From NCBI GenBank assembly GCA_038247415.1, contig JBBRUX010000017.1:8910-72909 (forward strand): DNA of 64,000 nt. Reading direction: 5' to 3'. The translations under genes and the position numbers were made by a program. The notes below the pieces were generated by a model, which saw only the letters and a program-made list of their open reading frames with translations, was not told where the DNA came from and ran no database searches. Position 1 is the first letter of the stretch, and each line of letters begins with the position of its first letter. This document shows, piece after piece, positions 5,950 through 55,829 of the stretch. Source of the stretch: Chitinivibrionales bacterium. Its GTDB lineage: Bacteria; Fibrobacterota; Chitinivibrionia; Chitinivibrionales; WJKA01.

Positions 5950-7070
5950 CTAGAGCTGGAATTTGTTCATTGAGCTATTGAGGCTTTCAGAAAGAGATCG
6001 AAGCGCGACAGCATTCTCAGATGTATAGGATGCATCTTTTCGGGTACTTTCTACAACTGTTTCGATATTGCTTATGGTTGTAAGGACTTGCATACTTTTC
6101 TGAGACATTTCCGTAAGTCCAGTTGCCAAGGCGCTTGCAGAGTCGCTGGCGCGTTGCACCGAAGAATTAATTTCGCCTATTGTAGCAGATTGTTCTTCAA
6201 TTGCCGATGAATTCGTTCGAGAAATAGATGCAAATTGGTCTATTGAATTGCGAATTGAATCTACCCCGCTCACAGCCATTTTAACCTGATTTTGCATTGC
6301 ACTAATCTTCTGCTGAATTTGTTTTGCTGCGTCGGTGCTTTGGGTTGCCAATGCTTTAACCTCTGCTGCAACAACAGCAAATCCTCTTCCCGCCTCTCCA
6401 GCCGATGTCGCTTCGATAGTTGCATTGAGTGATAGAAGTCGTGTTTTGCTTGCTATTTCATTCATGAGCTTTAAAATCGACCCAATTTCATGAGATGCTA
6501 TCTCAAGTTTTGCCATATTGTCGGTAACCGCTGCAACGCTATTTGCACTTTCTTGGGCCATGTGTGCTTCGGTAACGCAGTTTTGTGCGATTTCGGAGAT
6601 GCTTTTTTTCATTTCGTCGAGTGCATTTGAAAAGGAGGTGGTCATCTGTGAGACCTGCTGCGCTTCTGAGGTTAATGTCAGCGCAAGTTCGTGCGCATCG
6701 TTGCCCGCCGAAGAAATAATGCCGGTTCCTGACGAAAGGGTATGCGCATCGGTAGTTAGCTGGGCCGAGATGCTTTGCATTGAGTCTGCTGATTTGTCTT
6801 AAGATCTGCTCCGGCTTTTTCGGGTGATAATCCAGCAAATGCGAGTGAAACTGCCTTAAATAAGGAGGCTTGCGTTTGTCCGAGCGTAAAGGTAACTTCT
6901 GCCAGATCGCGTGATTCAAGAAGTGCTTGCTGATACTCTTTTTGAAGAGTCTGCTGCCCTATAACACGGACGATCATTACACAACCACTTGCGATAAGCA
7001 CTGTGGTAATGATAATAGACGGCATTACAAGTTTGATCAGAAGCTTTTGTTTTAAATACCATTTATACAT
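5950..7070 (-). pseudogene. Methyl-accepting chemotaxis protein, split by frameshift/internal deletion
   Basis: 7070-6756 has TM1 and the start of a sensor domain; 6780-5950 has the signalling hairpin (IASKTRLLSLNATIEATSAGEAGRGFAVVAAEVKALA) in another frame; no TM2/HAMP. Confidence 0.75.
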
Positions 7071-7072
7071 AC

Positions 7073-7540
7073 TTATTTTTTTTCGCTATAAATACCGCAT
7101 GCGACAAACATATCCTTGCCCGGAACCCTCGTAAAGAATGAAGTTTTTGGCTCAATTTTTTTAGATTCTGGATTTTGGAAGAGATAATCTACTGAACCAG
7201 TTCCTTTTGTTTTAGCGAGATTTACCATTTCTTCGATATATTTTTTCCCATTTACATCTGCTACATCGATGCGATTTTTCCCAACGAGCTTTGGCTTTTG
7301 CCCGTGTGCCAAACATACACCACTAAAATCGTAGACGAATACATAGAGCTCGCCCTTAACAAATTCGCCGGTGGTATCCATGAAAGCAGGAAAAGCTTTT
7401 TCAACACCGTTTGTTTTTATATAGGTTATTGCTTTCGAAATCATCGCGGTTGCATCATCTTTAGTTGGGGCTGTTGCAAAAATCAGTGCGCTCGAAGCTA
7501 AAATGATGCTACCAACTGCTGCCTGCTTTAAAAAAGACAT
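7073..7540 (-). CDS. Stand-alone periplasmic single Cache (sCache_2-type) domain protein
   Basis: Signal peptide; GELYVFVYD..G..LAHG..PKLVGKN..DVNGK..I.EM...AK..G.G.VDY pattern. Confidence 0.85.
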   Translation of the reverse strand: MSFLKQAAVGSIILASSALIFATAPTKDDATAMISKAITYIKTNGVEKAFPAFMDTTGEFVKGELYVFVYDFSGVCLAHGQKPKLVGKNRIDVADVNGKKYIEEMVNLAKTKGTGSVDYLFQNPESKKIEPKTSFFTRVPGKDMFVACGIYSEKK

Positions 7541-7803
7541 AGAAAACCTCCCGGAATAAAGAAAAAGTAAAGAATTCAAAGCCTAAATTATTTTTTACCT
7601 ATGTATATGAAGCTTCCAGATAAAGAACAAAAAGTTATTATACCATAAGAAACTATCGTACTGCAACAAATATGGTTTGGAGCAATCGCCCCAAAAAGAG
7701 CTCGTAACCTATCTCGGTTGCCCAATATTGAAGAAAGCAAAGGCAAAACGTATATTTTCTATCCCTTATTTTTACTAATATATCAGAGAAAGAGCTCTCT
7801 ACT

Positions 7804-8100
7804 ATGACTCCAGAGATGCTGAGTTACATTGATCGACGCAAGGCGATTGTACAAAAATTCAAAGAAGAGCTCATTAAAAGGCTTAATTTGCCGTATACTC
7901 CGGCAGATCTCCACGAAGATGTATCGCTTCTGGGGGCGGGGCTTGGGCTCGATTCCCTAGACGCTCTCGAAATTGTATTATGTGTTGAAAGTTGTTTCGG
8001 GGTAAAAATCCCCGACCAAAATATCTCTATTTTGCGTTCCATCAACACTATTGTCGATTTTGTGATAGAAACGCAAGATGCCAAAGGAGGTACCCAATGA
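7804..8100 (+). CDS. Acyl carrier protein
   Basis: 98 aa, GLGLDSLDALE phosphopantetheine motif, SINTIVDFV helix. Confidence 0.9.
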   Translation: MTPEMLSYIDRRKAIVQKFKEELIKRLNLPYTPADLHEDVSLLGAGLGLDSLDALEIVLCVESCFGVKIPDQNISILRSINTIVDFVIETQDAKGGTQ

Positions 8101-9206
8101 GAGTCTCGCTCTTACACGAAATGTTGGCACACAAAGGGGCAACATGTGAGAACCGGTATGGGGTCGAAATCGTTTCGAAGTTTACCGAGTTGTCAACCGA
8201 ATATCATTTTGTTCGCGATACCATAGGGCTTACCGATTTTTCTCATATGCAGCGGTATTCTATACCCGAGGCAACTGCTGTAGATTTTTTTGATACGCTC
8301 GTGGCTGGAGCAGTGATTCGTACCCGATTTGGAAGAATGCTCCATACTTTTATAGCCGATGAGTCCGGTACTATACTTGCAGATTGTTTTGTGGCAAATA
8401 ATGATGATGAATATATTCTTTTATGCGAAAGTATTGTCGATGATGTCGCAATGGCAGAGATTATGCATAAGCATGGGGGAGCACAGGAGGGGTTAGTCGA
8501 TCTTTCTGCTGATACGGTATTGCTGAGTCTTGATGGCTTTTCTGCCTGGAAAGTTGTCAAGGAATTATTTGGTACCGATGTTCTTGGATTGCCCTACCTT
8601 TCGGTTGAAAATTATACTTACGAGAACGAAAAAATCCGTTTGTTTCGCACGGGGAAGACATCTGAATTTGGCTATCTTCTTATGGCCCCAAAAGCTATTG
8701 CAATAAAACTAACCGAGCATATTCTTGCCGAAGTCGAAAAGCATAAAGGCGGATTGTGTGGCTTGACTGTGCACGATACGCTTCGCCTCGAAGGACGTTT
8801 TTTTAATATCTTTGCAGAGGGCGTACGAGTGGGCGATCCACTTGTTTTGGGGTTGCAATGGATGATCGATTTTGACAAGAGTGCCTTTATTGGACGTCAA
8901 GCTATCATCGATCGAAGAGAAAAAGGCTTGACAAAAAAAATTATTGGCATTAAATCTGCTGCAGCCTCCGATCGCTGTGCGGTATCAGATTCAGTATGGG
9001 ATAATGAAAAAGAAGTTGCATCCGTTGTGGCAACCTGTTTTTCCGAAGTTCTTGATAGATGCGTAGGACTTGCGGTGTTTCCGGCCGACATTGCCTATTC
9101 CGGATTATCGTTTCACTTAAAAAGCGTTTCGGGTCCTACACTACACACCATTTCAATGCCTCCAATTATGCCAAAAAGTTTATCTCTTAAATTGGATGAA
9201 ATGTAA
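8097..9206 (+). CDS. GcvT-like aminomethyltransferase (folate-binding) family protein
   Basis: ATGA overlap with ACP stop, GGAGG RBS; DFSHM, RTGKTSEFGY, DTLRLEG, FIGRQA motifs. Confidence 0.85.
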   Translation: MRVSLLHEMLAHKGATCENRYGVEIVSKFTELSTEYHFVRDTIGLTDFSHMQRYSIPEATAVDFFDTLVAGAVIRTRFGRMLHTFIADESGTILADCFVANNDDEYILLCESIVDDVAMAEIMHKHGGAQEGLVDLSADTVLLSLDGFSAWKVVKELFGTDVLGLPYLSVENYTYENEKIRLFRTGKTSEFGYLLMAPKAIAIKLTEHILAEVEKHKGGLCGLTVHDTLRLEGRFFNIFAEGVRVGDPLVLGLQWMIDFDKSAFIGRQAIIDRREKGLTKKIIGIKSAAASDRCAVSDSVWDNEKEVASVVATCFSEVLDRCVGLAVFPADIAYSGLSFHLKSVSGPTLHTISMPPIMPKSLSLKLDEM

Positions 9207-9207
9207 C

Positions 9208-9975
9208 ATGACTGTTGCTGTTCAGGATGTTGATTCCCGCGCACTCTCGGGCAAAATTGCACTTATTACAGGCGGATCTCGCGGGATTGGGGCAGCAATT
9301 GTAGAGCGTTTTTGTGCGCTTGGTGCAATAGTTTACTTTACGTATCGTCGTGATGCCGATGCTGCCACGGCATTGGCGAATAAGACTGGCGCACACGCAT
9401 GTTGCTGCTCGCAAAATGACGACCCTGCTATCGAAGCGCTTATTGCCACACTCCTTGATGCGCATCAAAAAATTGATATTCTTGTCAATAATGCGGGTAT
9501 TACAGACGACCAATTTCTCATGCTCATGCCGCCATCTTCGTGGGACACGGTACTAGATACTAATTTAAATGGTGCCTTTCGTTTTTGTAAACATACAAGT
9601 CGGCCTATGATTCAAAATAAGAGTGGCTGCATTATTAATATGTCGTCGGTTTCGGCCCTGGTTGGCATTGGAGGGCAAACTAATTACGCAGCATCTAAAG
9701 GTGCGCTTTTGGCGTTCACTCGTTCATTGGCTGCAGAACTTGGTCCACGCGGTATTAGAGTCAATGCAATTGTTCCAGGATTTATCGAAACCGAAATGAC
9801 CGCAAAAATGTCCCGTCAAATTAAGCAGCAGAATAAAGAACGAATAGTGCTTAAACGATTTGGGACTGCCTACGAAGTTGCTGATGTTGCTGTTTTTTTG
9901 GTTTCGGATGCTGCAACTTATATTGTCGGTCAATCCATTGTGGTTGATGGCGGACTTTCCTCGACCGTGATATGA
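9208..9975 (+). CDS. fabG: 3-oxoacyl-ACP reductase (SDR)
   Basis: TGGSRGIG, NNAGITDD, YAASK, PGFIETEMT motifs. Confidence 0.85.
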   Translation: MTVAVQDVDSRALSGKIALITGGSRGIGAAIVERFCALGAIVYFTYRRDADAATALANKTGAHACCCSQNDDPAIEALIATLLDAHQKIDILVNNAGITDDQFLMLMPPSSWDTVLDTNLNGAFRFCKHTSRPMIQNKSGCIINMSSVSALVGIGGQTNYAASKGALLAFTRSLAAELGPRGIRVNAIVPGFIETEMTAKMSRQIKQQNKERIVLKRFGTAYEVADVAVFLVSDAATYIVGQSIVVDGGLSSTVI

Positions 9976-10913
9976 CCTGTACCATAGCCGGACTTTTTCC
10001 AGGACAAGGCGGTATTGCGGTAGGCGATGCTAAAGTCATTCTCGAAGCAAGCGAATATACCAGATTTCTTTTTGAAAAAGCCTCCCAGTATTGCAATACC
10101 GATCTTGTAGAACTTTCTACGCACGGCCCCGAAAAAACACTCCTCCTTTCACGCACTGTTCAACCTGTTATTGTTGCGCTTTCATTAGGGTTGCTCTATG
10201 AATTTAGAGCTCACAAGGGGGAATTGTCGGTTGTTGTTGGTCATTCTTTAGGTGAGATTTCGGCACTTGCAGCAAGTGGCGTAATATCGGACGATAAAGC
10301 TCTTGTGTATGCTATCGAGCGTGGAATTCGCATGGATGAAGCCGCTTCGACCTGTGGAGGAGGCGGGATGAGAGCTGTGGTTTTTACTCCTCTTGAGAAC
10401 GTACGAAATCTTATTGCCGAACTTTTCGAAACCTACCCCATCTATTTAGCTAATGTAAACGCACCAGAACATTGCGTCGTATCAGGAACGCACGAATCCC
10501 TTGCTGTTTTTGCAAAGCTCCTCAAAGAACGAGGCCTTGGTAAATGTCAACCTGTTAGGGTGCGTGGGCCGTGGCATACCCCCTTAATGATACAGGCACG
10601 GCAATCCTATGCCCGTTGGGTAGAACATGAAACATTTGCTGCTCCCCGCATTCCCCTTATCCTTAACGAAAACGGGAGCGTCTTGACAGATGCTCATGAG
10701 ATCAAGCAATCACATATTAATCAGTTAGTTAATCCCGTCCAGTGGCAAGCGTGCATGACAACGCTCATCGAATTAAATCCACTGATGCTTGTGGAGTTTG
10801 GTCCTGGGCGGATGCTTACAGGACTTGCTCGTGTCAATGGCTTTAAGCGAGGATCGGTTGTGGTATCGGGTGCAACAGTATCCTCGATTATTGTTGCTTT
10901 AAACAATACGTAG
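9972..10913 (+). CDS. fabD: ACP S-malonyltransferase-like acyltransferase
   Basis: FPGQG, GHSLGE, ERG..M, N.N.P..VVSG, GPWHT, EFGPG motifs. Confidence 0.8.
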   Translation: MTCTIAGLFPGQGGIAVGDAKVILEASEYTRFLFEKASQYCNTDLVELSTHGPEKTLLLSRTVQPVIVALSLGLLYEFRAHKGELSVVVGHSLGEISALAASGVISDDKALVYAIERGIRMDEAASTCGGGGMRAVVFTPLENVRNLIAELFETYPIYLANVNAPEHCVVSGTHESLAVFAKLLKERGLGKCQPVRVRGPWHTPLMIQARQSYARWVEHETFAAPRIPLILNENGSVLTDAHEIKQSHINQLVNPVQWQACMTTLIELNPLMLVEFGPGRMLTGLARVNGFKRGSVVVSGATVSSIIVALNNT

Positions 10914-11085
10914 TGTCAAACGCTTGCATTGCTTTTTTCCTTCAACCAGTTTCTACGTTGCGGTTGCATGGATCATACAAAATCGCTATATTACTTAGAC
11001 GCTTCCCTGCTATAAAATTTTAGAACTGAAATAGCTTGTTACCTTATTTACTAGGTTTCTTTTGAGACCCAAGGGACTATTCTGC

Positions 11086-12819
11086 ATGATTCATCGAAAA
11101 ATAAGAATAATTTCGCAGGTGTTCTTTCTCTTTCTTTTCTTTGGCACTTTCTTTTTATTGACTACCTATAGCAACGCAGTATCGTTTAAGAGTGCATGGT
11201 TTTTGCAATTAAACCCCTTAACGTCCCTCTGCGTTATGATTGCTGCGCGATCGATGGTTTGGCCGCTTCTTATCGGGAGTGCGCTTGTGTTTACGCTTAC
11301 CCTCATTTTTGGTCGTTTTTTTTGTGGTTTCATCTGCCCACTGGGAACACTTATAGATGCAAGTGACAAATATCTTTTCGGGCATACCCCGCCCTTTAAA
11401 GCGCAAGTTCTCCCGAGTAAATTAATCCGAGTAAAATATCTTCTCTTGATTGCACTTGGTGTTCTGGCTCTTTTTTCCTCTCTTGTTCCGCTCTTTTTCG
11501 ATCCGATTTCTTTGTTAACGCGCATTGCTACTATAATTCTTGTTCCCTTATTTTCTATTGTGCGAGCCGACAGCACTGCATTTTTGCAGCAGATTTCTTC
11601 TGGTGCTCTCAGTTTCCCTGCCTTTAAGGTTCCTCTTTATTATGCAATAGGCGAAGCCCTTATTCTTGTTGCCCTTATTTTTTTTGGGGCCTTGTGGGCA
11701 CCTCGTTTTTATTGTCGGGTTCTATGTCCAAGCGGTGCTTTTTTTGGGATCGTTGGTCGCTTTGCACTTTTTCACCGGCGCTCACATGCTGCAACGTGTC
11801 ATTCCTGCGGTTTGTGTGCAAAATTGTGTCCAACCAATGCAATTATTAATAAGAACGGCGATACAACAATTCAGAGCGAATGTATTGTGTGCGGAGTCTG
11901 CACCTCAAAAAAACATGTTGCGTGCAATCGATTTGTTTTTGGGAAGCCTTCACTCGCTTTTGTTAAAGGTCCCGACCTTTCTCGTCGTAGTCTTGTTGCG
12001 GGTGCCGGCATTGGTGCGCTTTTGGTGCCACTCGTTCGAGCAGATGCACTTGTCAAGCAAGATGGGCAGGGGAGGCTTATACGGCCGCCTGGTGCAATCG
12101 AAGAAATTGATTTTGTCAAGAAGTGTATTGGGTGCGGTGCGTGCTATAAAGTATGTCCCACAAATGCCATTCAACCATGCACTTTTTTGGATGGCGCACT
12201 ACGGCAGTTTTCCCCAAAAATTGTTCCGCGTATCGGCGGATGCGAAGAAAAATGTTTTGCATGCGGACATGTGTGTCCAACAGGTGCTTTACGGCCGCTT
12301 GTGTACGAGAGTAAAAAGTATGCGAAAATAGGAACTGCTGTTATTCATCGGCAAAAGTGTCTTGCATGGTCTCAAAAACGCGAATGCCTTGTGTGTGATG
12401 AAACGTGTCCGTATAATGCCATTGAGGCGAGTGTACAGGAAACTACCAAAGGTCCTTTTAAAGTACCAATTGTCTACGAAAGTCTTTGCACTGGTTGCGG
12501 AATGTGCGAAATGCATTGTCCTATCAAAGGGGATGGTGCAATAGTAGTATATAAATTTGGAGAAAATAGGCTATCCAAAGGTGAGTATCTTACGCAGTGG
12601 CAGAAGAAGAGCTTTGATGAGCAACGTCAGAAATCTGACAGCAAAGGGATGATGGGAACTGCATCTTCATCGTCTGCAGATACACCTCTCACGGGTTTCG
12701 AAAATACCGGATTTGTATCACAATCGTCAGGTTCTGAATTAGTTGACACAGCAAAGTTTGCTCCGCAGAATACAAAAAGCACCTCTTCTGGGAGTGCTCT
12801 TCCTGCAGGATTTGAATAG
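11086..12819 (+). CDS. Membrane-bound polyferredoxin (NapH/MauN-like TM region fused to NapF/NapG-like 4Fe-4S domain)
   Basis: GRFFCGFICPLG and RFYCRVLCPSG motifs; SRRSL..G; IRPPGA; multiple CxxCxxCxxxCP. Confidence 0.85.
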   Translation: MIHRKIRIISQVFFLFLFFGTFFLLTTYSNAVSFKSAWFLQLNPLTSLCVMIAARSMVWPLLIGSALVFTLTLIFGRFFCGFICPLGTLIDASDKYLFGHTPPFKAQVLPSKLIRVKYLLLIALGVLALFSSLVPLFFDPISLLTRIATIILVPLFSIVRADSTAFLQQISSGALSFPAFKVPLYYAIGEALILVALIFFGALWAPRFYCRVLCPSGAFFGIVGRFALFHRRSHAATCHSCGLCAKLCPTNAIINKNGDTTIQSECIVCGVCTSKKHVACNRFVFGKPSLAFVKGPDLSRRSLVAGAGIGALLVPLVRADALVKQDGQGRLIRPPGAIEEIDFVKKCIGCGACYKVCPTNAIQPCTFLDGALRQFSPKIVPRIGGCEEKCFACGHVCPTGALRPLVYESKKYAKIGTAVIHRQKCLAWSQKRECLVCDETCPYNAIEASVQETTKGPFKVPIVYESLCTGCGMCEMHCPIKGDGAIVVYKFGENRLSKGEYLTQWQKKSFDEQRQKSDSKGMMGTASSSSADTPLTGFENTGFVSQSSGSELVDTAKFAPQNTKSTSSGSALPAGFE

Positions 12820-12846
12820 TTTTTTACCGATAAAACGGGGGTTGCC

Positions 12847-13755
12847 ATGGATCTATCTCGTCGTGAATTTGTTAAATCTTCTGCAGTTGCATCATTGCTT
12901 GCAGTGCCGGTAGTAGCTCTTGATCAAGCAGCATCTGCAAAAAGTGAAGTTTTTGTGGGAAAAGGAAATGCAGAGATTGTCATTCCAAAGATACTTGCGA
13001 AAATGGGTGGGATAGGGCGTTTTGTAAAGCCTGGAAGTCGCGTTGTTATTAAGCCGAATATGAGTTTTGCTAATCCACCCGAATGGGGAACGACAACCTC
13101 CCCAGAAGTTGTGGCAATACTCGCAAAGCTCTGTTTAGATGCTGGTGCTAAGCGGGTTATTGTATGTGATAATACCTTGCGTGATCCACAAATTTGTAAA
13201 GCGCAAACTGGCATTGGGGCGGCACTCAAAGATCTCAAGGGTGTGGTTATCTTTACGCCACAACAGGTGGATTCTTTTTATGAGGAAAAGAGTCATCCTA
13301 AGGCTTTGGAGCTTACTCGTACCGAAGTGGTTAAAGAAGTACTTGCCGCCGATGCTCTTATTTGTCTTCCTGCTGCTAAATCTCACTCTGCGGGAGGCGT
13401 ATCTTTTGGCATTAAGGGCTTAATGGGTCTGGTTAAAAATCGTGGGCGTTTTCACTCCGAAATGGATTTACACAAAGCAATTGCGGAACAGCTTTACTAT
13501 ATGACTCCCACGCTCACACTTATCGATGCAACACGTGCGCTGCTTGACAATGGCCCTGCTGGTCCTGGCAAGGTTGTTACTCTTAATACCTATGTGGCGG
13601 GAACCGATCCTGTAGCTACCGACAGCTTTGGCGTTTCTCTTGCGCCCTGGTATGGGAGAAGTTTTGATGGCAAACAGGTAACGCATCTTCAGCATGCGAG
13701 CGCACTTGGTTTTGGAAATGTAGATTCGGCAAAAATTTCGGAAATTACTGTGTAA
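12847..13755 (+). CDS. DUF362-family Fe-S protein with Tat signal
   Basis: SRREFVK twin-arginine; VVIKPNM, P.AKSH...GV..GIKGLMG, DPVATD motifs. Confidence 0.85.
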   Translation: MDLSRREFVKSSAVASLLAVPVVALDQAASAKSEVFVGKGNAEIVIPKILAKMGGIGRFVKPGSRVVIKPNMSFANPPEWGTTTSPEVVAILAKLCLDAGAKRVIVCDNTLRDPQICKAQTGIGAALKDLKGVVIFTPQQVDSFYEEKSHPKALELTRTEVVKEVLAADALICLPAAKSHSAGGVSFGIKGLMGLVKNRGRFHSEMDLHKAIAEQLYYMTPTLTLIDATRALLDNGPAGPGKVVTLNTYVAGTDPVATDSFGVSLAPWYGRSFDGKQVTHLQHASALGFGNVDSAKISEITV

Positions 13756-13779: not shown

Positions 13780-13824
13780 GCAATCACTGTGGTATAGCTG
13801 TGAAGGCATTTCCAAAGTGATTGC
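13780..13824. terminator. Inverted repeat between convergent genes, possible terminator
   Basis: GCAATCACT...AGTGATTGC; no clear U-tract. Confidence 0.4.
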
Positions 13825-13835
13825 AGTGTAGCGTT

Positions 13836-14504
13836 TTATATGTTGAGAATTCCCCGAATTATTCCCAGGTACTCTTCTCGCCGCGTATCGAAGTCAACAG
13901 GCTTTTGGAAAAATTCAAAGAAACGGTTCTGTCGAAGCGTTCTGTAAAGAAGATTGTTGTCGTTTTCTGGATTGCCTGTAATCAGAATAAAAGCCATAGA
14001 GGGAACGAGTTTTTTTACTTCGGTGCAGAGCTCGTTGCCTCGCATTCCCGGCATTACTTCATCGGTAATAACTAAGCCCACTTCGGGGGTTTCCTTGATA
14101 AATGCAAGCGCTTCAAAGGGATTGGTGAATGTTTGCAGCTTAAAATATTTGCTGAATTTGCGTTTGAAAACAAAGATGTTTTGTTCTTCATCGTCAACGT
14201 ATACAACAATGGGTTGCTTGAGTGAATGTGGCTTTTGAGCCTTGAGCATATGGTCGATAATATCCCCAATGGTTAGGGTATTAAACCGTTCGGGTACCAG
14301 CATGCTCTCCATTTCTAGAGATGGAATTTTAAGTCGAATTTCGAGGTCGCGTATTATTTCTCCAAAAGTAGCGATATCCACTCCATACGCCTGAAGTTGC
14401 TTCGTTGGCTCGGCTATTTCTTCGAAATGTATAATCTCATCGTTTCTATCGATGATACGTTCAGCGGCTGCACGGAGCAGATTGTAAGCAGAGGTCTTAT
14501 CCAT
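13836..14504 (-). CDS. ACP-like domain (Ser-less) fused to response-regulator receiver domain
   Basis: N-term YGVDIATFGEIIRDLEIRL...TIGDIIDHM resembles the ACP fold; C-term YVDDE, ITDEVMP, ITG, QKP receiver motifs; ATG overlaps upstream stop by 8 bp. Confidence 0.8.
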   Translation of the reverse strand: MDKTSAYNLLRAAAERIIDRNDEIIHFEEIAEPTKQLQAYGVDIATFGEIIRDLEIRLKIPSLEMESMLVPERFNTLTIGDIIDHMLKAQKPHSLKQPIVVYVDDEEQNIFVFKRKFSKYFKLQTFTNPFEALAFIKETPEVGLVITDEVMPGMRGNELCTEVKKLVPSMAFILITGNPENDNNLLYRTLRQNRFFEFFQKPVDFDTRREEYLGIIRGILNI

Positions 14505-15705
14505 TGGAACCTTTCTTGCCAGGAAACCGTGATTCGAGGCCAAATTTTTTAAGCGCAGCAATAATTTCTGCACCTATTAAATCAATATCGTTTTCGGAGA
14601 GATCGGAATACAAAGAAAATCTGAGTAAACTTGATCCCGACGGAACTGCAGGCGGGAGAAATACCGCTGTAAGAATATTTTTTTCGAGCAGTTCGCCATA
14701 CATGAGGCATGCGTCATCTGTCCCTTTAAATCGCAGAGAAACAATCTGGCATTCGCTTGGACCAGTATCAATATTTTGTGCTGTCAAAAGCTCTCGTAAA
14801 CGCTTGGCCATTGCATGAACATGAGCTGCACGATGTGGCTCTCGCTCAATAATTGCAAGTGCTGCACTATTTCCAGCAGAATTTGCAGGAGGAGGAGCAG
14901 AACTAAAAATGCTTGGTCGCATCCAGAACGGTAGCGCTTGCCCAGCATACTTGGAAGTTATGATGAGTCCTCCGCTACCACCTAATGCTTTGGCTAAACT
15001 GACGGTTCGGTAATGGATCGCGCTTTCGAGCCCTAATGCTACTGCAAGCCCTCCGCCATGTTCGCCGATCATGCCAAAACTATGAGCTTCGTCAAGAACC
15101 AAAACACAATTATTTTTTTGCGCTATGTCAGCGTACTGCTCAAGGGGAGAAACTGCTCCGCTTGTGCTGTAGTATGAGTCTATAATGACTATCCCCGGCC
15201 CGTAGGATTCAATGAAGCTCTCCAAAGCCTTTGGGCGGTTGTGACGAATAGGGACTATGCGACCTGCAGAAAGGCGGCCGCCATCCCAGAGTGAAGCATG
15301 TGCTGCCATGTCAATGTAAATGGGTGTGTCTTCGGTGGCAAGGGAACTGATCAGGCCGACATTTGCCGACCAGCCGCTGGTTGTGATCTGGATTCCATCG
15401 GGTCCGTCGACTTTTGATACGCGTGCTACACGTTCGCGAAATTCAGAATGGTAATCGTGTGCACCACCATAGGTCATGGATGCCATAGCACCAGAGCCTG
15501 TTTTTTCGGTTGCTGCATTTTTTGCAGCAATAACTTCTGGGTGTGCAGATAAACGCAAATAGTTGTTTTGATGACACGTAAAGTACCCTTTGATGTCTGC
15601 ATCGGGCGGAGGATCAAAAGGAAAAACCACCAGGGCGTTTTTTGATACGTAGAATTCATCGATACGTTTGCTGAGCCAATCGGGCATTGTGGGAACGTTA
15701 TTCAT
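14497..15705 (-). CDS. cqsA: CqsA/LqsA-like PLP-dependent alpha-oxoamine synthase (putative alpha-hydroxyketone autoinducer synthase)
   Basis: MPDWLSKRID N-terminus, QNNYLRLSAHP, SGWSANVGL, YIDMAAHASLWDG, GPGIVIIDSYYST.G, DEAHS, SLAK (PLP Lys), IFSS; matches remembered Vibrio CqsA motifs better than BioF/Kbl. Confidence 0.75.
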   Translation of the reverse strand: MNNVPTMPDWLSKRIDEFYVSKNALVVFPFDPPPDADIKGYFTCHQNNYLRLSAHPEVIAAKNAATEKTGSGAMASMTYGGAHDYHSEFRERVARVSKVDGPDGIQITTSGWSANVGLISSLATEDTPIYIDMAAHASLWDGGRLSAGRIVPIRHNRPKALESFIESYGPGIVIIDSYYSTSGAVSPLEQYADIAQKNNCVLVLDEAHSFGMIGEHGGGLAVALGLESAIHYRTVSLAKALGGSGGLIITSKYAGQALPFWMRPSIFSSAPPPANSAGNSAALAIIEREPHRAAHVHAMAKRLRELLTAQNIDTGPSECQIVSLRFKGTDDACLMYGELLEKNILTAVFLPPAVPSGSSLLRFSLYSDLSENDIDLIGAEIIAALKKFGLESRFPGKKGSNG

Positions 15706-15739: not shown

Positions 15740-16801
15740 TTAATAGTAATTTTTTAAATCGGTTCGGCGATTCCATTGACCGGTGACCATTAATTTGATA
15801 CGGACCATCCACACGATTGCATCGCGCATGCCTAAACGATGGGCTGCATAGCGCATTGCTTTGAATGCACCATTGAGCCGATAATTTTTAAAGGGGCCTT
15901 TTCTTTTAATGTCTTGTTGAACAAAGAGTGGTGTATCGTATTGTATATCGTTGAGGTTGATATGATAAGTAAACCGCCCCTCTGTACGGGCCGCATCAAC
16001 AGATTTTTTATGGCGCGCCGTACTTGCAGGAGTCACTACCATTGCGAGCGCGTAATCCCCACTAATAGCACCACTTGGGCAATCCATCGAGCATCGAAAG
16101 CAGAAAATGCACGGTGACTGAATGCGTGGTGGGTTAGAAAGCGGATCGATACCGCCAACAGGACAAATTTTAGCGCAGATTCCGCATGTGGTGCATCGAT
16201 TAGCATCGATATGTAAAGGAGGAAGCATTGCGCGTAACGTCTTAGGTTGATACAGATCGAGTTCTTTAAAAACCCATCGTTCCTCTTTTGGCAAAGGAGC
16301 CGGTTGCACCGAGGGAATGTCTTCTCCAGCACGGGCCCGTAGAGTCAAACGAGCGATACTTTTCCCAAACTCAGTGGATTCTTCGAGATCCAAAGTGTCG
16401 GGGTGTCCTGTGGTGAGGGTAGGATACGGATAATACGGGAGTCTTCCGTCGGCATAGCAATGATGACATCCTAACACTGTAGCAGCTTTATTTTTAAGAG
16501 AAAGAGTGATTGACTGAAGAGCAGTTGCCGGAATGGTTCCATGGGAGACAAAGGCAAACCAGAGAGCCCCATTTTGAGCAGGGAGTGCATTGATAAAATC
16601 GGTTACATTAAAAGGAATCTGATAATAAAAAACGGGTGATCCAATACCAATGACATCGTAGGATGCTAGTAACGTTGTGTCGATCGTGTGCATTTCAAAA
16701 AGGTCGACAGGAAGACCCGCGGCTTGAATTCCTGTTGCAATTGCCTGGGCAACTTTTTTAGTTCCGCCAGTTTGCGAAAAGTAAATTATTGCACATTTCA
16801 T
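15740..16801 (-). CDS. Flavodoxin + 2x[4Fe-4S] ferredoxin (EFR1-family)
   Basis: YFSQTGGT flavodoxin loop, GHPD..D, CTTCGICAKICP and CIFCFRCSMDCP; ATGA overlap with upstream gene. Confidence 0.85.
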   Translation of the reverse strand: MKCAIIYFSQTGGTKKVAQAIATGIQAAGLPVDLFEMHTIDTTLLASYDVIGIGSPVFYYQIPFNVTDFINALPAQNGALWFAFVSHGTIPATALQSITLSLKNKAATVLGCHHCYADGRLPYYPYPTLTTGHPDTLDLEESTEFGKSIARLTLRARAGEDIPSVQPAPLPKEERWVFKELDLYQPKTLRAMLPPLHIDANRCTTCGICAKICPVGGIDPLSNPPRIQSPCIFCFRCSMDCPSGAISGDYALAMVVTPASTARHKKSVDAARTEGRFTYHINLNDIQYDTPLFVQQDIKRKGPFKNYRLNGAFKAMRYAAHRLGMRDAIVWMVRIKLMVTGQWNRRTDLKNYY

Positions 16802-18327
16802 GTGGGAGTATCTTTCATCTGACTTTTGATGTTGCACTGTTTGAGAATAGCTTCTGCCGACCAATAGGCAGACATGCCAACACCCGAGATCCCTGCACCT
16901 GGGCTAACCCACGCACTTGTAAAATATAAAGCATGCTTTTTAAGATGAAAGGGAAATCGGTTTAGCCCGCCTTGAGAAATTCGCTGACATGCCCCATATA
17001 CTGCACCTTCGGGATTATTGCTATAGCGTTGCATTGTTTTTGGTGTGCTGATGTCAGCTACATCAATATGGTTTGTAAACCCTGGAAAGTGCTTTTCAAC
17101 CTTGGCAATAAGTATGTCTGCTACCCGTTTCTTTTCGGCATTGTATGCAGCTTTGTCGGTAATTGCATTCCAGTAGGGTATCCGATCCACAGTGCAGATC
17201 GCGAGAACCGATTTGCCCTCTGGTGCAAGCGAATGGTCGAGGTTATACGATATGAGTGCTATACCTCTTTTGTCAAAATCAACGAGTTTTCCATCTGTTT
17301 TTGTCTCACTAATGTCGTCAAGTTCATTCAGAAAATAGCAATATTCATTGATCCCGAGCGATTTTGCATCAACATTCAAACCAATATATACCGAGAACAT
17401 TGAAGTGGAAATATGTGTCCTTGATGCTTTTTTCTGAATGCGAGCAGATACTGCCTTTGTGTTAATCAGTCCAGAAAAGAGCTCTGTTATTGGGCCATTG
17501 TAAACAACGGCATCGGCAGGGATGTGGTTGGTATCGATGCTTACACCGCATGCTTTTTTGCCTTTGAAGTCGATATGGTTAACACGAGAATTTGTATGAA
17601 TTTCGCCATTGTTTTCGGTTATAATAGTTCCAAGTGCTTTTGCAAGTTCGTGCGAAGTTCCAGAAATCCAGTACGCTTCGTTAAGAAATACATGGGTAGG
17701 CGCAGCAAAAAAAGGAACATTGAGATTTCTGACATCATCGGCAAAGTAATAGTAAAGCTGCCCGAGAATAGTACGCACTTTGTTATTGGCGATAGTTCCC
17801 CAAATGAGATCGTGCACAGTTTTATAGGAATACATCATCAGGGTTGGCATTTTAAAAGGTGCCTTGAGTAGTTCAAATCCTTTTGCATCCGAAAACCAGT
17901 CGAGTTCCGAAGATATTTTTTCGAGCACGGTAAAAAAGGTTGTTATCCCTTTTTGTTCTTCGGGAAATTGGTTTACAAGCTGGGCACAAAGTTCTTTTGA
18001 GGAATGGGGCAGGGTGAATTTAAAATCGCCTGTGATGGAGGTATACGGGGATTTGATAGGAAGCAAGGTGATACGTTCTTGCAATTTCAAATAGCGAAAA
18101 TAACGCGCTTTAAGTTTGTCGTTGAGAAAACCGTTAAGCTCGTGCAAAGATCCTTCCATTAAATAGTCTTTTCGTTTCCACGAAGTAGCAAAACCCCCAA
18201 TTTTTGGAAGCGCTTCAAAAATATGAACTTTGACGCCATGCTTCGCGAGCATTGCACCACAAAAGAGACCGCCTAAACCGCCGCCAACAATTGCAACAGT
18301 GGGTGGATTTGATCCTTGGGTTTTCAT
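16798..18327 (-). CDS. Phytoene desaturase/retinol saturase-family FAD oxidoreductase
   Basis: GGGLGGL..A..LAK.G..V..FE...IGG Rossmann motif; TPKT.QRY..N.EGAVYG; PGAGISGV. Confidence 0.85.
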   Translation of the reverse strand: MKTQGSNPPTVAIVGGGLGGLFCGAMLAKHGVKVHIFEALPKIGGFATSWKRKDYLMEGSLHELNGFLNDKLKARYFRYLKLQERITLLPIKSPYTSITGDFKFTLPHSSKELCAQLVNQFPEEQKGITTFFTVLEKISSELDWFSDAKGFELLKAPFKMPTLMMYSYKTVHDLIWGTIANNKVRTILGQLYYYFADDVRNLNVPFFAAPTHVFLNEAYWISGTSHELAKALGTIITENNGEIHTNSRVNHIDFKGKKACGVSIDTNHIPADAVVYNGPITELFSGLINTKAVSARIQKKASRTHISTSMFSVYIGLNVDAKSLGINEYCYFLNELDDISETKTDGKLVDFDKRGIALISYNLDHSLAPEGKSVLAICTVDRIPYWNAITDKAAYNAEKKRVADILIAKVEKHFPGFTNHIDVADISTPKTMQRYSNNPEGAVYGACQRISQGGLNRFPFHLKKHALYFTSAWVSPGAGISGVGMSAYWSAEAILKQCNIKSQMKDTPT

Positions 18328-51135: not shown

Positions 51136-51412
51136 GCTTCCTAAGATTGCCATCGCCTTCCTTGAATCGGATTCCTCGTTAGCTTTGGATGATATAATAA
51201 ATATTTCGATGTGTGATGGTTATCACATTTTTGTGCTGCGCCTTGTTATATTTTGATAGAGAGAAATACCTGCTCGTGTTGTGTTGGTCAATGGCCGTCG
51301 CGGCGAGAGCGTAAACCTTTTTGTGGTATGGTGCACCGTGTTTGGAAATGTGATCGATTCCGAAAAATTTCTTACCTTCCCCTGCTGCGAATTATGCGTA
51401 CATGCGCCGTGC

Positions 51413-53518
51413 ATGAAATTAAGATTCGGTCCGATTCGCCCGCTCAAATTCTTATTAGTTCATCGCAGTCAGTTTTCTGCAGCTCGCATCGGGTGTCCTT
51501 TCTACGAATACGACAAAAACTCAATTGCACAACTTATTTCCACTATACCAACCATGCGGTTACGTCAAGTTTTCAGGAATGCTCTTGCGCTTCTTTCTGC
51601 TGCCGAGAAAAATAGGTTTGATAATGGGCAAAATCTGGTTAGTGAAGACGATCGCAATGGCGCAATAAGGTTTATTCAGGCACTTACAACATCGGGAATT
51701 CTTGCAGTAATTCGCATCCCGCAATGGTATGAATCGGATCCTGCGATGCGTAAATGGCTCTCCATCTACCAGCGGATCGATCAAAAGAAAGAGCAACCAT
51801 TGCGCGCTTTGGAATCAGCAGTTGAGGGTGTTGTAGAAAGTGCTGCGGCTGCAGCGCAAACATCGCTGCGGCCCTATATTGTTGCAAGCGCATGGGTTCA
51901 CGCTATCGCCGATGTTCTCCCGTTACGGCCCGACTTTGCAACCCTTGGAGACTCGGTAACACTTTCTGTTTCTACAAAAAATATCGATGATGGTACCTAT
52001 GTGCATTTCGATGTGTATGAGGGAGATCCTAAAAACGCTCAAATTGTAAAGACGATTGATGCTCTTGTACAGAGCAATAGTGCACAATGTATCTACGATT
52101 TGGCACAGGATAATCCACCCTCAACCGTTTTGAAAATTCGTATCGATGATTCTGCCAACACTCATGACACGTGCGTTATAAGCGATGATGCTGGAAATAT
52201 TCTCTCCGAGGCATCTTGTGGCAGTGCCCAAACAGATGAAAATGGGCGAGTGCTTACCGTAGAAAATGTTCCGCTGGGTAAACCTGTAATTGTTTCGATG
52301 CGCTGCGAATCGGATACTACACCCATAATTTCTAAGTGCGTGGTGGGAAAAATGGTTCCTCCGATCCTGCCTCTTGTCACCTTTGTTGTTCGTTGCGAAG
52401 AACTAACAAGCGGACGTCGATCGGTTCCGCTAAAAACTCCGCACGAGGCAGCCCGCATTGCTGCCGAAAAACAGGTTGCAGCCAACGCATCGGAGTCATC
52501 TGGCGCACCGGGCGATCTTGGGGGAACTTCATCTGCAGCCAGTTCAGCGCATGCCAAATCGATTGCTTCCTGCGCATGGACTTTTGCAGATGGTGAGAAT
52601 AGAGCACTGGCTGCAGGCGATGGGCTGATGCTTTCTTGTAAAGCCAATAACTTTTCAGATGGAGACGCTGTCCTGTTTGATATTGTCGATGCGAAAAATC
52701 CGAGTGCACCTATCGCTTCTTTGTCGGGGACAGTGGCGGCTGGGTATGCAAAGGTTCCTTGGGTTTTTGGCAATTCATCGCAGCAGCAGAATGTCCGGCT
52801 TGTTTTTTCGGATCCAATTGTGGGCGATCAACAATCTCAAGACTCCTTTACTATTCTATGTGCAGATGGAACAACATCCGTTGCACTGTCGTTAGGGGAT
52901 GCCAAACCTTCTGAATCTGGCATGAGCCTGGATATTGCATGTGGCACAGCACTTCCTTCACAATTACAGGTGTCTATTGGAACGCTGGGAAACCTTGTGA
53001 TAGGGTCGCTTGATACTGCTTCTACAGGCGAATCGTTACGATTTACAATATGTGCGTCTGCCGAGGCGTGTACCATGGTGCAATGCCAGGTGGTTGCAGG
53101 AAGCGCAGGAACTGTTTACAAAGAACCGTCTGCAGCTTCAACAACAACATCATCTTCACAGAATTCTGATTCTAGTTCTTCGAGCACTGCTTCAGAAGCT
53201 AATCCGCCACCAAAGGAAGCTGTGGCTGCAGCAGAAGTAGCTTCTTTACTTGCGGTTGGTGGCATAGTTGCAAGTGCTGCGCTTATTGAGGCTCTTAAAA
53301 AGAATACGGGCAGGGGAGTTCTTGTTACATCGCTTGCTGGAGGGGATGGCGCGGGAGACCATTTGTCTGTTAAAGCGTTAGGGTATACTAAAAAAATAAC
53401 GCTCTCTGATGCAAAGCCTCTTGTGTATACAGATATTCCGAAATCCGGTTTAATAACTCTCGAAGTTTTGGATCGGGATGGTTTTACTTATTCGATACCA
53501 TTAAAGGCCAAAGCCTGA
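51413..53518 (+). CDS. Hypothetical protein with duplicated Ig-like domain, in vgrG locus
   Basis: Long ORF (start uncertain, 51281-51413); two copies of AW...GD...LS....N..DG..V.FD; Ser/Ala linkers. Confidence 0.65.
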   Translation: MKLRFGPIRPLKFLLVHRSQFSAARIGCPFYEYDKNSIAQLISTIPTMRLRQVFRNALALLSAAEKNRFDNGQNLVSEDDRNGAIRFIQALTTSGILAVIRIPQWYESDPAMRKWLSIYQRIDQKKEQPLRALESAVEGVVESAAAAAQTSLRPYIVASAWVHAIADVLPLRPDFATLGDSVTLSVSTKNIDDGTYVHFDVYEGDPKNAQIVKTIDALVQSNSAQCIYDLAQDNPPSTVLKIRIDDSANTHDTCVISDDAGNILSEASCGSAQTDENGRVLTVENVPLGKPVIVSMRCESDTTPIISKCVVGKMVPPILPLVTFVVRCEELTSGRRSVPLKTPHEAARIAAEKQVAANASESSGAPGDLGGTSSAASSAHAKSIASCAWTFADGENRALAAGDGLMLSCKANNFSDGDAVLFDIVDAKNPSAPIASLSGTVAAGYAKVPWVFGNSSQQQNVRLVFSDPIVGDQQSQDSFTILCADGTTSVALSLGDAKPSESGMSLDIACGTALPSQLQVSIGTLGNLVIGSLDTASTGESLRFTICASAEACTMVQCQVVAGSAGTVYKEPSAASTTTSSSQNSDSSSSSTASEANPPPKEAVAAAEVASLLAVGGIVASAALIEALKKNTGRGVLVTSLAGGDGAGDHLSVKALGYTKKITLSDAKPLVYTDIPKSGLITLEVLDRDGFTYSIPLKAKA

Positions 53519-53540
53519 TAGAATACCGAAAGGAAATTTC

Positions 53541-55778
53541 ATGGCAGAGTACACTGCGGTAAAAGGCGATACAATGAAGTCGATTGCGCAACTCTTCTTT
53601 CTTTCCCAGAGCGTAGCCGAACAGTTGTGTAGTATCAATAATCTAACGGGAATTGATGCTCAAATATCTGAGGGAACCACAATCACGATTCCTCCCCGGC
53701 TCTATTCGGTTCTTTCGCAGCAACCGCAAGGCGATATTATGCTGATTTCACTTTCGACCCTTGTAAAGCAAGATGTGAGCTTTCCACCGGTTACCGATTC
53801 GCCTATGGTTTTCTATTCCCCTCGACAAGGGAAATATTTGGCCATTGGGCTTGATCATGCAACAAGTGAAATAACAACGCTTGTGCGCGAAGCTCAGCAA
53901 ATTGTCAATATGGCAAAACGCATTGCAACAGCCTGGGCAAGGACAGATATCTTTGCACTTATCGACGATGCGAAAAAGGCCGGAGAAGAATTAGTATCAA
54001 TGCTTCCTGCCATTGCAAAAGACCCCAAATCTGCCTTGGAAGAACTTGTTGTGGTTAAAACGAATACGGGATGGGAAGAGCTTCCCCAACGTTTTTTTGT
54101 ACGACCCGATAAACTCAGCGCGATTATTCCATCTCCCGCAGCCTGGAAAAGCACCGGCGATGCTCTCCTGCAAAAGATTTTATCAGAAATCCCAACAGCT
54201 CCTCCAGGATGTCAGGCAGCACTTACTGCGCTCTCGGCACTTACAGCAAATGTTGACGCATTGGGAAGTGCACCGCTGGATTGGAAATACGCTGCCGATA
54301 CCGCAACTGCTGCTGCGAAAAATGCATTTGCGACAACCCCTGCCGCGGCATTTTTACGTTTTTTAACGTCTGCCGATCCGATGGCTTTACTTTCTGAACA
54401 AGCTAAAAAACTTCAATTTTCCAAAATTGGCAATTTAGACTTGTCACTTGCAAGCGGGTCGATTTCTGGAAAATGGGCGATTCCTAGTGAAAATGGTCTT
54501 AATATTTTTGAGGTTTTTGGGGCACCAGCAGATATGGTGTGTCGTATTCGCCTGGGACTTGAGCTTGCCGCCCATATTTATGCAGATGTCAAGATTGCTT
54601 CAATTGCTTCCTTGCCCAATCTCTCGCTTGTTTCTGGTTCTGCACCTACTGCATCGGGAACTGCAACGGCCAGCGCAACGGCCAACCTTGATGCAGCAGT
54701 CGATATCACGGGAACAATCGATTGGAGTCCAGAATCCAGTGGCACGTTTCGCAATCTTGCCCTGGTTGATTTTGATGCATCGGTAGTTGCAAATGCCGAT
54801 GCTAAAGTGGCCATATCTTTTAAGGATGCTAATGTTCGATGCAGTTTGCCAGCTGCAAAGATTAAAGGATTAGCCGGAAAAGGGTCTTTAGTTGTAGATG
54901 TCAAAACCGATGAAGCAATTCTCTTATTTGAGCATCTCTTTAATACGGTTATTAATCATTATAAAAAAATGGCAACCGATAAAGCGTCGGGCGTACTCAA
55001 GTTACTGGGGACTAATGCAGATTCTGCATTGTTAAATGCCCAGCATAGTGCAGAAGAAATTGCCAATGCTGCTGCTCAATTTATCAAATATTTTTCGGTT
55101 GGCAAAGTAGTAGATGGAACTGCAAGTGGAACGTGGTATATTCCAGCAAAAGATGGATTTGATTGCGTATCACTTTTTGATAAAGTGCCACCGCTCAAAT
55201 TGCTTCTCAAAAAAGATAACCATTGTGTTGTACGATTTAAGTTCGATCTTGCAGGGTATTATTTTGCTTCGGCATCTGCACAAGGAAGTGCAACCGGATC
55301 GGCATCGGCAACGCCCGCCCAAGCGTCTACTGCAGGATCGTCAACGGGTAATGCTTCGGGGTCGGCTAGTGGAAAGTGTGAAGCAGTTGTGGAATGGTCC
55401 GATGCCCCTAATGGAGTTTATAAAACTCTTGGCAAAATTCTCATGACAGCCGATGCCGATGCCCAGGCTGCTGGCGCTGTCAAGGGTGGTGTAGGAATAC
55501 ATTATAAAAACAAAGAGCTTAAGTGCGCCCTGCCTTTATCGATTATCCCATCATTGGGCGGTGGGTCAAGTCATTCGGAAGCTATTATGTTTACCGCAAG
55601 TGGACCTGAGGCAGAAAATTTTGTCAATCATCTCTTTTCATCGCTTAATCTGGATCTTGGCGGATTGGGTGGTTTAAGCCTTGGAAATATCGGGCAAAAA
55701 ATTGGTGAAGGTGTTAAAGCGGTTGGCAATGTGGCAACTGGAGCAGGTAATGCGGTTAAAGGATTATTTGGCAAATAA
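53541..55778 (+). CDS. LysM-like N-terminus + duplicated unknown domain; candidate VgrG cargo
   Basis: YTAVKGDTMKSIA....L..INNL......ISEGTTITIP LysM pattern; AAGGA RBS; internal repeat. Confidence 0.7.
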   Translation: MAEYTAVKGDTMKSIAQLFFLSQSVAEQLCSINNLTGIDAQISEGTTITIPPRLYSVLSQQPQGDIMLISLSTLVKQDVSFPPVTDSPMVFYSPRQGKYLAIGLDHATSEITTLVREAQQIVNMAKRIATAWARTDIFALIDDAKKAGEELVSMLPAIAKDPKSALEELVVVKTNTGWEELPQRFFVRPDKLSAIIPSPAAWKSTGDALLQKILSEIPTAPPGCQAALTALSALTANVDALGSAPLDWKYAADTATAAAKNAFATTPAAAFLRFLTSADPMALLSEQAKKLQFSKIGNLDLSLASGSISGKWAIPSENGLNIFEVFGAPADMVCRIRLGLELAAHIYADVKIASIASLPNLSLVSGSAPTASGTATASATANLDAAVDITGTIDWSPESSGTFRNLALVDFDASVVANADAKVAISFKDANVRCSLPAAKIKGLAGKGSLVVDVKTDEAILLFEHLFNTVINHYKKMATDKASGVLKLLGTNADSALLNAQHSAEEIANAAAQFIKYFSVGKVVDGTASGTWYIPAKDGFDCVSLFDKVPPLKLLLKKDNHCVVRFKFDLAGYYFASASAQGSATGSASATPAQASTAGSSTGNASGSASGKCEAVVEWSDAPNGVYKTLGKILMTADADAQAAGAVKGGVGIHYKNKELKCALPLSIIPSLGGGSSHSEAIMFTASGPEAENFVNHLFSSLNLDLGGLGGLSLGNIGQKIGEGVKAVGNVATGAGNAVKGLFGK

Positions 55779-55829
55779 TAATACATACGATTTGGTAAAA
55801 CAACGAACTCCTTATTCGGTGGAGATTTT

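Follow-up and report, generated by a model that had tools for sequence, protein, structure and literature searches.

Known outputs of response regulators act on transcription, second messengers, proteolysis adaptors and motors. In the PhyR-type regulators an N-terminal degenerate sigma-factor-like domain is joined to a C-terminal receiver, and the protein serves as a phosphorylation-controlled decoy for an anti-sigma factor. Two-component genes are also found beside the synthase gene in alpha-hydroxyketone quorum sensing, as for CqsA/CqsS in Vibrio and LqsA/LqsR/LqsS in Legionella. Here we describe a gene from a 64-kb window (the whole stretch of DNA that was analysed) for a response regulator that has a degenerate acyl carrier protein (ACP) as its output and not a DNA-binding domain.

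The regulator shares with PhyR the layout of an N-terminal mimic and a C-terminal receiver, together with the decoy logic that we propose below. While PhyR aims a sigma-factor mimic at an anti-sigma factor, the window protein has a carrier-protein mimic with an enzyme as the proposed target, and the two N-terminal domains are not homologous. No ECF sigma-like domain was found in the N-terminal domain (N-domain) of the window protein, for which the best 50 structural matches are all carrier proteins. Like the CqsA and LqsA systems, the loci of this family pair a two-component gene with an alpha-oxoamine synthase (AOS) that is closest to CqsA. Unlike in those systems, the regulator consists of an ACP-like domain followed by a receiver with no LqsR-type output, and the synthase reaches 300 of the 428 bits set for alpha-hydroxyketone autoinducer synthases.

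Compared with ACPs (PF00550), the N-domain likewise has four helices, a Gly-x-Asp turn before helix II and an acidic helix II/III face, and weak sequence matches to them recur among its family members. It differs by the absence of the phosphopantetheine serine and by its fusion to a receiver. A serine lost to a hydrophobic residue is also seen in the mitochondrial ACP (mACP) of P. falciparum, where the replacing Phe is needed for Isd11 binding, ACP stabilises Nfs1-Isd11, and the mACP acts as a pantetheine-less binding module (PMC8547962). The two proteins thus have in common a hydrophobic residue in place of the serine and a protein-binding role, proposed here and described there, with the replacing residue of the mACP helping to form the interface. 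The mACP is unlike the window protein in being eukaryotic and organellar, standing alone, having an LYR-protein partner and lacking phosphorylation control.

Among AOS enzymes, SulA uses acyl-ACP and has an electropositive groove, formed by both protomers, beside the active-site entrance (PMC9304779), and the proteobacterial serine palmitoyltransferase (SPT) has a dedicated ACP (PMC9386255). The docking site predicted below is of the same kind as the electropositive ACP landing pad of SulA-type enzymes. The partners of SulA and of the proteobacterial SPT are genuine holo-ACP substrates, whereas the pseudo-ACP described here cannot be loaded. The literature searched, with most subscription journals outside its scope, gave no description of an ACP-like or PP-binding domain joined to a response regulator, in agreement with the first reading of the DNA, made from sequence alone, which knew of no characterised system with this architecture.

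The regulator gene and its surroundings

The regulator and its neighbouring synthase are encoded by the following features.

13836..14504, minus strand: gene for the pseudo-ACP and receiver protein, 222 aa, with a stop-free translation and the stop codon at 13836-13838
14217..14504, minus strand: N-terminal ACP-fold domain, residues 1-96, net charge -5 (AF2 and VIA-align)
13839..14213, minus strand: receiver domain and C-terminal helix, residues 98-222 (PF00072 and full-length model)
14497..14504, minus strand: 8-nt overlap ATGGATAA of regulator start and synthase stop, read from the sequence
14497..15705, minus strand: CqsA-like PLP-dependent AOS, 402 aa, PLP lysine K239 (PF00155, NF005526 and solved relatives)

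The 222-aa regulator has 204 homologues at E ≤ 1e-3, nearly all of them 219-227 aa long. Its start is the ATG at 14504-14502, and M1 is almost invariant among 40 aligned homologues. A longer frame from a GTG at 14573 was dropped, as the 40 aligned homologues begin at the ATG; the gene limits given in the sequence-only reading are therefore right, and the strings quoted there (YGVDIATFGEIIRDLEIRL, TIGDIIDHM and ITDEVMP) are all found in the translation. Two plus-strand open reading frames fall within the gene (13821-14075 and 13954-14238), and the minus-strand frame is the one with the 204 homologues. The 8 nt shared by the two genes imply that their translation is coupled.

The AOS gene adjoins the regulator gene upstream on the same strand, and its product has the class I/II aminotransferase fold (PF00155). 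Its best NCBIfam family is NF005526 (alpha-hydroxyketone autoinducer synthase) with 300.4 bits, under the equivalog cut-off of 428, and BioF comes next at 233.6 bits. The closest solved relative is CqsA of V. cholerae (5e-58), followed by SPT (1.7e-43) and BioF (3.5e-39). As both the best NCBIfam model and the closest solved relative point to CqsA, 'CqsA-like AOS' is a fair name; the earlier description of the neighbour as a CqsA-like enzyme holds in that sense, with a score below that of a NCBIfam equivalog. K239 and H136 are invariant in 17 aligned sequences.

Genes on both sides of the pair were annotated with Pfam.

15740-16864, minus strand: flavodoxin and 4Fe-4S fusion
16798-18327, minus strand: flavin amine-oxidase/desaturase-like protein
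7804-13755, plus strand: row of genes converging on the 3' end of the regulator gene

The two flavoprotein genes upstream of the AOS gene (15740..18327) lie on the same strand and probably belong to the same operon. The plus-strand row contains a true ACP (PP-binding; 7804-8100), a GCV_T-like folate-binding protein, a FabG-like SDR, a FabD-like acyltransferase, a 585-aa membrane polyferredoxin and a DUF362 protein, and could supply acyl-ACP to the synthase. No counterpart of this true ACP was found at E ≤ 1e-5 in the 28 related loci described below, and no histidine kinase was found within the 64-kb window.

Two other regions of the window deserve mention. Consecutive minus-strand open reading frames at 5950-7579 encode a Cache domain (7073-7579), a protein without a domain (6756-7070) and an MCP signalling domain (5950-6780), and have the appearance of a single chemoreceptor gene that frame changes or sequencing errors have broken up. 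On the plus strand at 51281-58016, two 745-aa proteins without a Pfam match are followed by a VgrG-like protein (Phage_GPD and base V), and the region may hold cargo of a type VI secretion or contractile-injection system.

The N-terminal domain has a carrier-protein fold

Pfam analysis of the 222-aa protein gave Response_reg alone and left the N-terminal half without any family; PF00550 did not match the window protein itself at E ≤ 0.01. Across the family, PF00550 was matched by 12 of 40 members at E ≤ 1, the best with 5.5e-6. The sequence-only reading had seen an ACP pattern in this half of the protein. An AlphaFold2 (AF2) model of residues 1-96, made with a 27-row alignment from the window and related loci, bears this out and gives a carrier-protein fold (pLDDT 87.9, pTM 0.78) with four helices (3-18, 44-58, 66-74 and 79-90), the first two being separated by a long loop.

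When the model was compared with 48,161 chains using VIA-align, carrier proteins were found in all of the 50 best rows listed. The best match among them is the T. maritima ACP 1vku_A, with an rmsd of 2.2 Å, 82/85 aligned and a Z of 10.2, a value of the kind that helical models can reach by chance according to the tool's own warning. The result counts because the matches are uniform and cover the whole domain, and not for the Z value alone. The top rows from Foldseek are also nearly all carrier proteins, with weak E-values of 0.15-2. As Foldseek gave nothing at E ≤ 0.001, the fold assignment rests on VIA-align and on the uniform identity of the matches. Look-alikes in the ESM Atlas all lie below 0.9 and are a lead only, with one cluster that is 24% PP-binding.

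Sequence profiles point in the same direction. NodF is fourth in a search of the PDB with the N-domain profile, matching over its full length with E 0.041; the leucine-rich-repeat proteins that top this search match in many short stretches over the 'LxxLPxxL' segment and were judged spurious. Against 1.84 billion representative proteins, the profile gave 34 matches at E ≤ 1e-3. Besides family members, they comprise some repeat proteins, again regarded as spurious, and several polyketide synthases in which 3-5 PP-binding domains stand in tandem. Short matches of 99-174 aa may be truncated genes. Alignment of the profile with the window's true ACP (7804-8100) using hhalign gave no support (probability 0.23, E 0.27), with a single-sequence target making this a weak test. 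From the fold matches together with the PF00550 and profile matches, we take the N-domain to be a diverged ACP homologue. It is acidic as well, with a mean net charge of -5.6, of which -4.5 falls in residues 41-76 on the helix II/III face.

The phosphopantetheine serine is lost throughout the family

To anchor the serine column we used the homologue P0006, in which an LDS is aligned to the ADS of the solved ACP 2n50. In the family alignment the Ser of P0006 falls in the column of Ile44 of the window protein, and D43-I44 lies opposite its DS.

14373..14378, minus strand: codons of Asp43-Ile44, the ACP 'DS' position where Ile replaces the phosphopantetheine serine (sequence, column counts and anchoring alignment)

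Among 119 homologues, the residue-44 column reads Leu (54), Ile (35), Val (15), Glu (5), Pro (4), Ser (2), Ala (2), Tyr (1) and Thr (1). The Ser is thus kept in 2/119, and Leu, Ile or Val is found in 104/119. The loss first noticed in the window protein, an Ile in place of the serine of GxDS, therefore stands at the anchored column and extends over the whole family. Other residues of the N-domain are kept, namely G41 (118/119), D43 (115/119) and R57 (118/119).

No alternative Ser/Thr column near residue 44 is conserved in the 119 homologues. Position 46 reads Ala (46), Thr (45) and Ser (14) among others, and position 48 Ser (55), Pro (36) and Gly (24). With the Ser column lost and no nearby Ser/Thr column conserved, the family as a whole would, on its sequences, be unable to carry phosphopantetheine at the canonical site.

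The receiver is intact

The match to Response_reg (PF00072) covers residues 100-206 with 43.8 bits against a cut-off of 30.2.

14061..14063, minus strand: codon of the phospho-acceptor Asp148 in ITDEVMP (sequence; D148 in 119/119)

D104, D105, D148, T176 and K201 are each present in 119/119 homologues, and F198 is at least 90% conserved among 40 aligned homologues. In the full-length AlphaFold2 model (pLDDT 88.0, pTM 0.59) the receiver has five strands alternating with five helices, (beta-alpha)5. A phosphorylation switch is not visible in this model, as the pTM of 0.59 leaves the domain placement unfixed. No domain follows the receiver, and the 222-aa protein has no DNA-binding or enzymatic output. 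The description of an intact receiver (DD, phosphoacceptor D, T and K) without a DNA-binding output is thus confirmed, with its signature residues invariant across the family.

The N-domain is predicted to dock at the active-site entrance of the synthase

The sequence-only reading had proposed that the ACP mimic could dock on the adjacent synthase. Complex prediction, run on a synthase dimer (from a 17-row alignment) together with the N-domain (from 27 rows), supports this at the level of a model. The AOS dimer with the N-domain scored 0.75 (0.74, 0.76 and 0.75 in the individual runs) and the best of three controls 0.01, where the score is the model's own confidence, and the self-made alignments and three chains lie outside the calibration of the tool. 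One of the controls, in which the AOS was swapped for an unrelated protein of likewise 402 aa, scored 0.01. In the benchmark for the complex score, the mark is reached by 116/157 solved complexes and by 2/215 mismatched pairs. The prediction runs agree, with at least 89% of contacts in common and a partner pLDDT of at least 76.

On the N-domain, the predicted interface is formed by residues 43-45, 47-48, 52 and 66-76, which is the canonical ACP recognition face. On the synthase it has two parts.

15205..15309, minus strand: docking patch, synthase residues 133-167 (predicted interface), flanking invariant D132/H136, with basic R144, R149 and R154
14638..14655, minus strand: second part of the docking site, synthase residues 351-356 (predicted interface), the PPAVPS loop before invariant R362

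Ile44 is predicted to contact P152 and M133, and residues 125 and 147 of the other subunit are also predicted to contact the N-domain. In the predicted complex, Ile44 and the acidic faces of helices II and III lie against basic residues next to the PLP site. We put the chance that the regulator binds the synthase at slightly better than even.

Co-occurrence with the synthase and distribution

The same genome carries a second copy of the regulator on another contig, where it shares 4 nt with the end of the AOS gene that belongs to it. Upstream of that AOS gene are genes for an AMP-binding enzyme and a radical SAM protein. Using receiver-motif patterns alone and one genome per species, we gathered 28 family loci, almost all of them labelled Fibrobacteria or Fibrobacterota. 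These loci hold 41 genes with the N-domain, and AOS genes are present in 18 of the 28. The association with the synthase that the first reading had looked to is seen for both copies in this genome and for 19 of the 41 genes, which directly follow a same-strand AOS gene. The link to AOS is not obligatory, with 11 of the 41 genes lacking an AOS in the fetched flank. By identity to the window enzyme, three groups of AOS partners can be told apart, at ≈47%, 27% and 18%.

The family loci also carry GAF-HATPase histidine kinases, class III cyclases and a second regulator subtype of 233 aa. Histidine kinases adjoin family genes in related loci, and homologues of these GAF-HATPase kinases lie ≈9 kb from the second copy in this genome, on a contig other than that of the window.

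In the 233-aa subtype (L003:4136-4837, L001:1382-2083, L010:4529-5230 and others), H-V-S/T/N-E/D replaces G-x-D-x and 9 residues are inserted ahead of helix IV. It usually precedes the AOS gene by one or two genes, with a class III cyclase or a ≈530-630-aa gene without annotation as its neighbour. Arg57 is the sole invariant N-domain residue common to both subtypes. It lies outside the predicted synthase contacts and may hold the Gly-x-Asp turn or touch the receiver. The island of the second pseudo-ACP regulator in this genome (contig C5) also contains a PilZ domain fused to a FeeM-type N-acyl amino acid synthase (L070:15835-17028, plus strand), which is another signalling domain joined to an acyl-signal synthase. 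This gene is located beside a methyltransferase and divergent from a class III cyclase.

At the level of the phylum, the N-domain was found in 22 of 296 genomes, a count that includes the unpublished genome G253. It occurs in 18 of the 32 genomes of one distant family (also counting G253) and in 0 of the 6 other genomes of the window's family. Close CqsA-like genes (E ≤ 1e-70) were found in 14 of the 296 genomes, and 8 of these 14 also have the N-domain. Six genomes from a further family have the CqsA-like gene and no pseudo-ACP match, and in the single one looked at, this gene lies beside a hybrid kinase, as in classical CqsA/CqsS. The patchy distribution of the N-domain hints at transfer or repeated loss of a synthase-regulator cassette.

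The two halves of the regulator differ in conservation, with a mean pairwise identity among the 119 homologues of 35% for the N-domain and 70% for the receiver. Across 15 AOS/regulator pairs, the AOS distance correlates with the N-domain distance with a Spearman coefficient of 0.75 and only slightly, at 0.26, with the receiver distance. Since the pairs belong to three related clades and are not independent points, the values are suggestive and not a statistical test. Such divergence is in keeping with adaptation of the N-domain to its own synthase, the receiver being kept constant by a shared partner.

A possible carrier-protein decoy

We tentatively read the regulator as a decoy for a carrier protein, switched by phosphorylation and seated in the acyl-donor port of the synthase with which it is paired, and put the chance of this a little short of even. 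The pseudo-ACP would have kept the fold, the Gly-x-Asp turn and the acidic helix II/III face, with a hydrophobic residue replacing the serine, and would carry no acyl group, as the phosphopantetheine serine is replaced. The regulator would be made together with the CqsA-like AOS, and its N-domain, a decoy carrier, would land on the basic pad by the entrance to the active site of the synthase dimer, with Ile44 at the mouth where the pantetheine arm would enter. Occupancy of the port would compete with the acyl donor (acyl-ACP or acyl-CoA), and signal synthesis would be throttled. A histidine kinase would phosphorylate Asp148 and thereby change the availability or avidity of the decoy; a possible route is that dimerisation of the receiver offers two decoys to the two symmetric ports. 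The outcome would be a direct post-translational two-component control of autoinducer production.

We infer three elements of this scheme: that the sign is inhibitory, what phosphorylation does and which kinase acts. Inhibition is favoured because the predicted site covers the entrance with the Ser-equivalent residue at its centre, and an inhibitory decoy is a possible reading, held at most as firmly as the decoy itself and perhaps less. CqsA of V. cholerae uses acyl-CoA, and an ACP port is therefore perhaps not physiological for this enzyme class.

The family could also act on a different target. The ACP-like output would then work on the neighbouring histidine kinases, on the class III cyclase or on some other ACP-dependent enzyme, and its adjacency to the synthase would reflect co-regulation of the island only. 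The islands with GAF-HATPase kinases, class III cyclases and the 233-aa subtype are in keeping with this, as are the family genes without an AOS in the fetched flank, and binding does not follow from gene adjacency alone. However, the complex prediction is specific for the synthase as opposed to the unrelated 402-aa protein, the divergence of the N-domain tracks that of the AOS, and stop/start overlaps are found at both copies in the genome. We consider another target unlikely.

An obligate structural or activating subunit is likewise improbable, if still worth weighing. Here constitutive binding would stabilise or activate the synthase and the receiver would fine-tune it, with no competition against the acyl donor. 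The same docking prediction applies to such a subunit, translational coupling suggests near-stoichiometric production, and a Ser-less ACP with the role of a stabilising subunit is already described in the mACP of P. falciparum (PMC8547962). The location of the predicted site at the active-site entrance (H136 and the 351-356 loop), with the Ser-equivalent residue central, suits occlusion better than activation, and CqsA-like enzymes occur without this partner.

The first reading had alternatively suggested that the N-domain itself binds the acyl signal, which gained no support. As an intracellular ligand sensor, the helical bundle would hold an acyl signal or intermediate non-covalently and inform the receiver, and ACP cores are known to shelter acyl chains. 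The family-conserved G41, D43 and R57 are surface-turn and helix II positions and not those of a pocket, however, and the input of a receiver is usually phosphotransfer and not an attached domain, which leaves a ligand sensor very unlikely. A true carrier protein with a non-canonical attachment site is hardly credible, with the canonical Ser in 2/119 homologues and a Thr46 close to Ile44 in the window protein on one side and no conserved Ser/Thr column at positions 46 and 48 on the other.

The decoy reading can be extended to the family. Each paralogue would have a fast-evolving pseudo-ACP tuned to the port of its own AOS, and a shared kinase would switch several synthases through the conserved receiver; we regard this extension as possible and somewhat doubtful.

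Implications

If the decoy reading is true, it would add a new mode of enzyme regulation, in which a two-component system controls a biosynthetic enzyme by directing a mimic of its substrate carrier at the substrate port. For cell-cell signalling it would mean a new kind of feedback, in which a quorum-sensing-like circuit is adjusted post-translationally through synthase activity rather than through gene expression. The N-domain would then be a bacterial case of an ACP without its prosthetic group that has turned into a pure binding module. The finding also draws attention to a signalling system, as yet unexplored, that combines AOS synthases with kinases and cyclases in one phylum, with relatives labelled Fibrobacterota.
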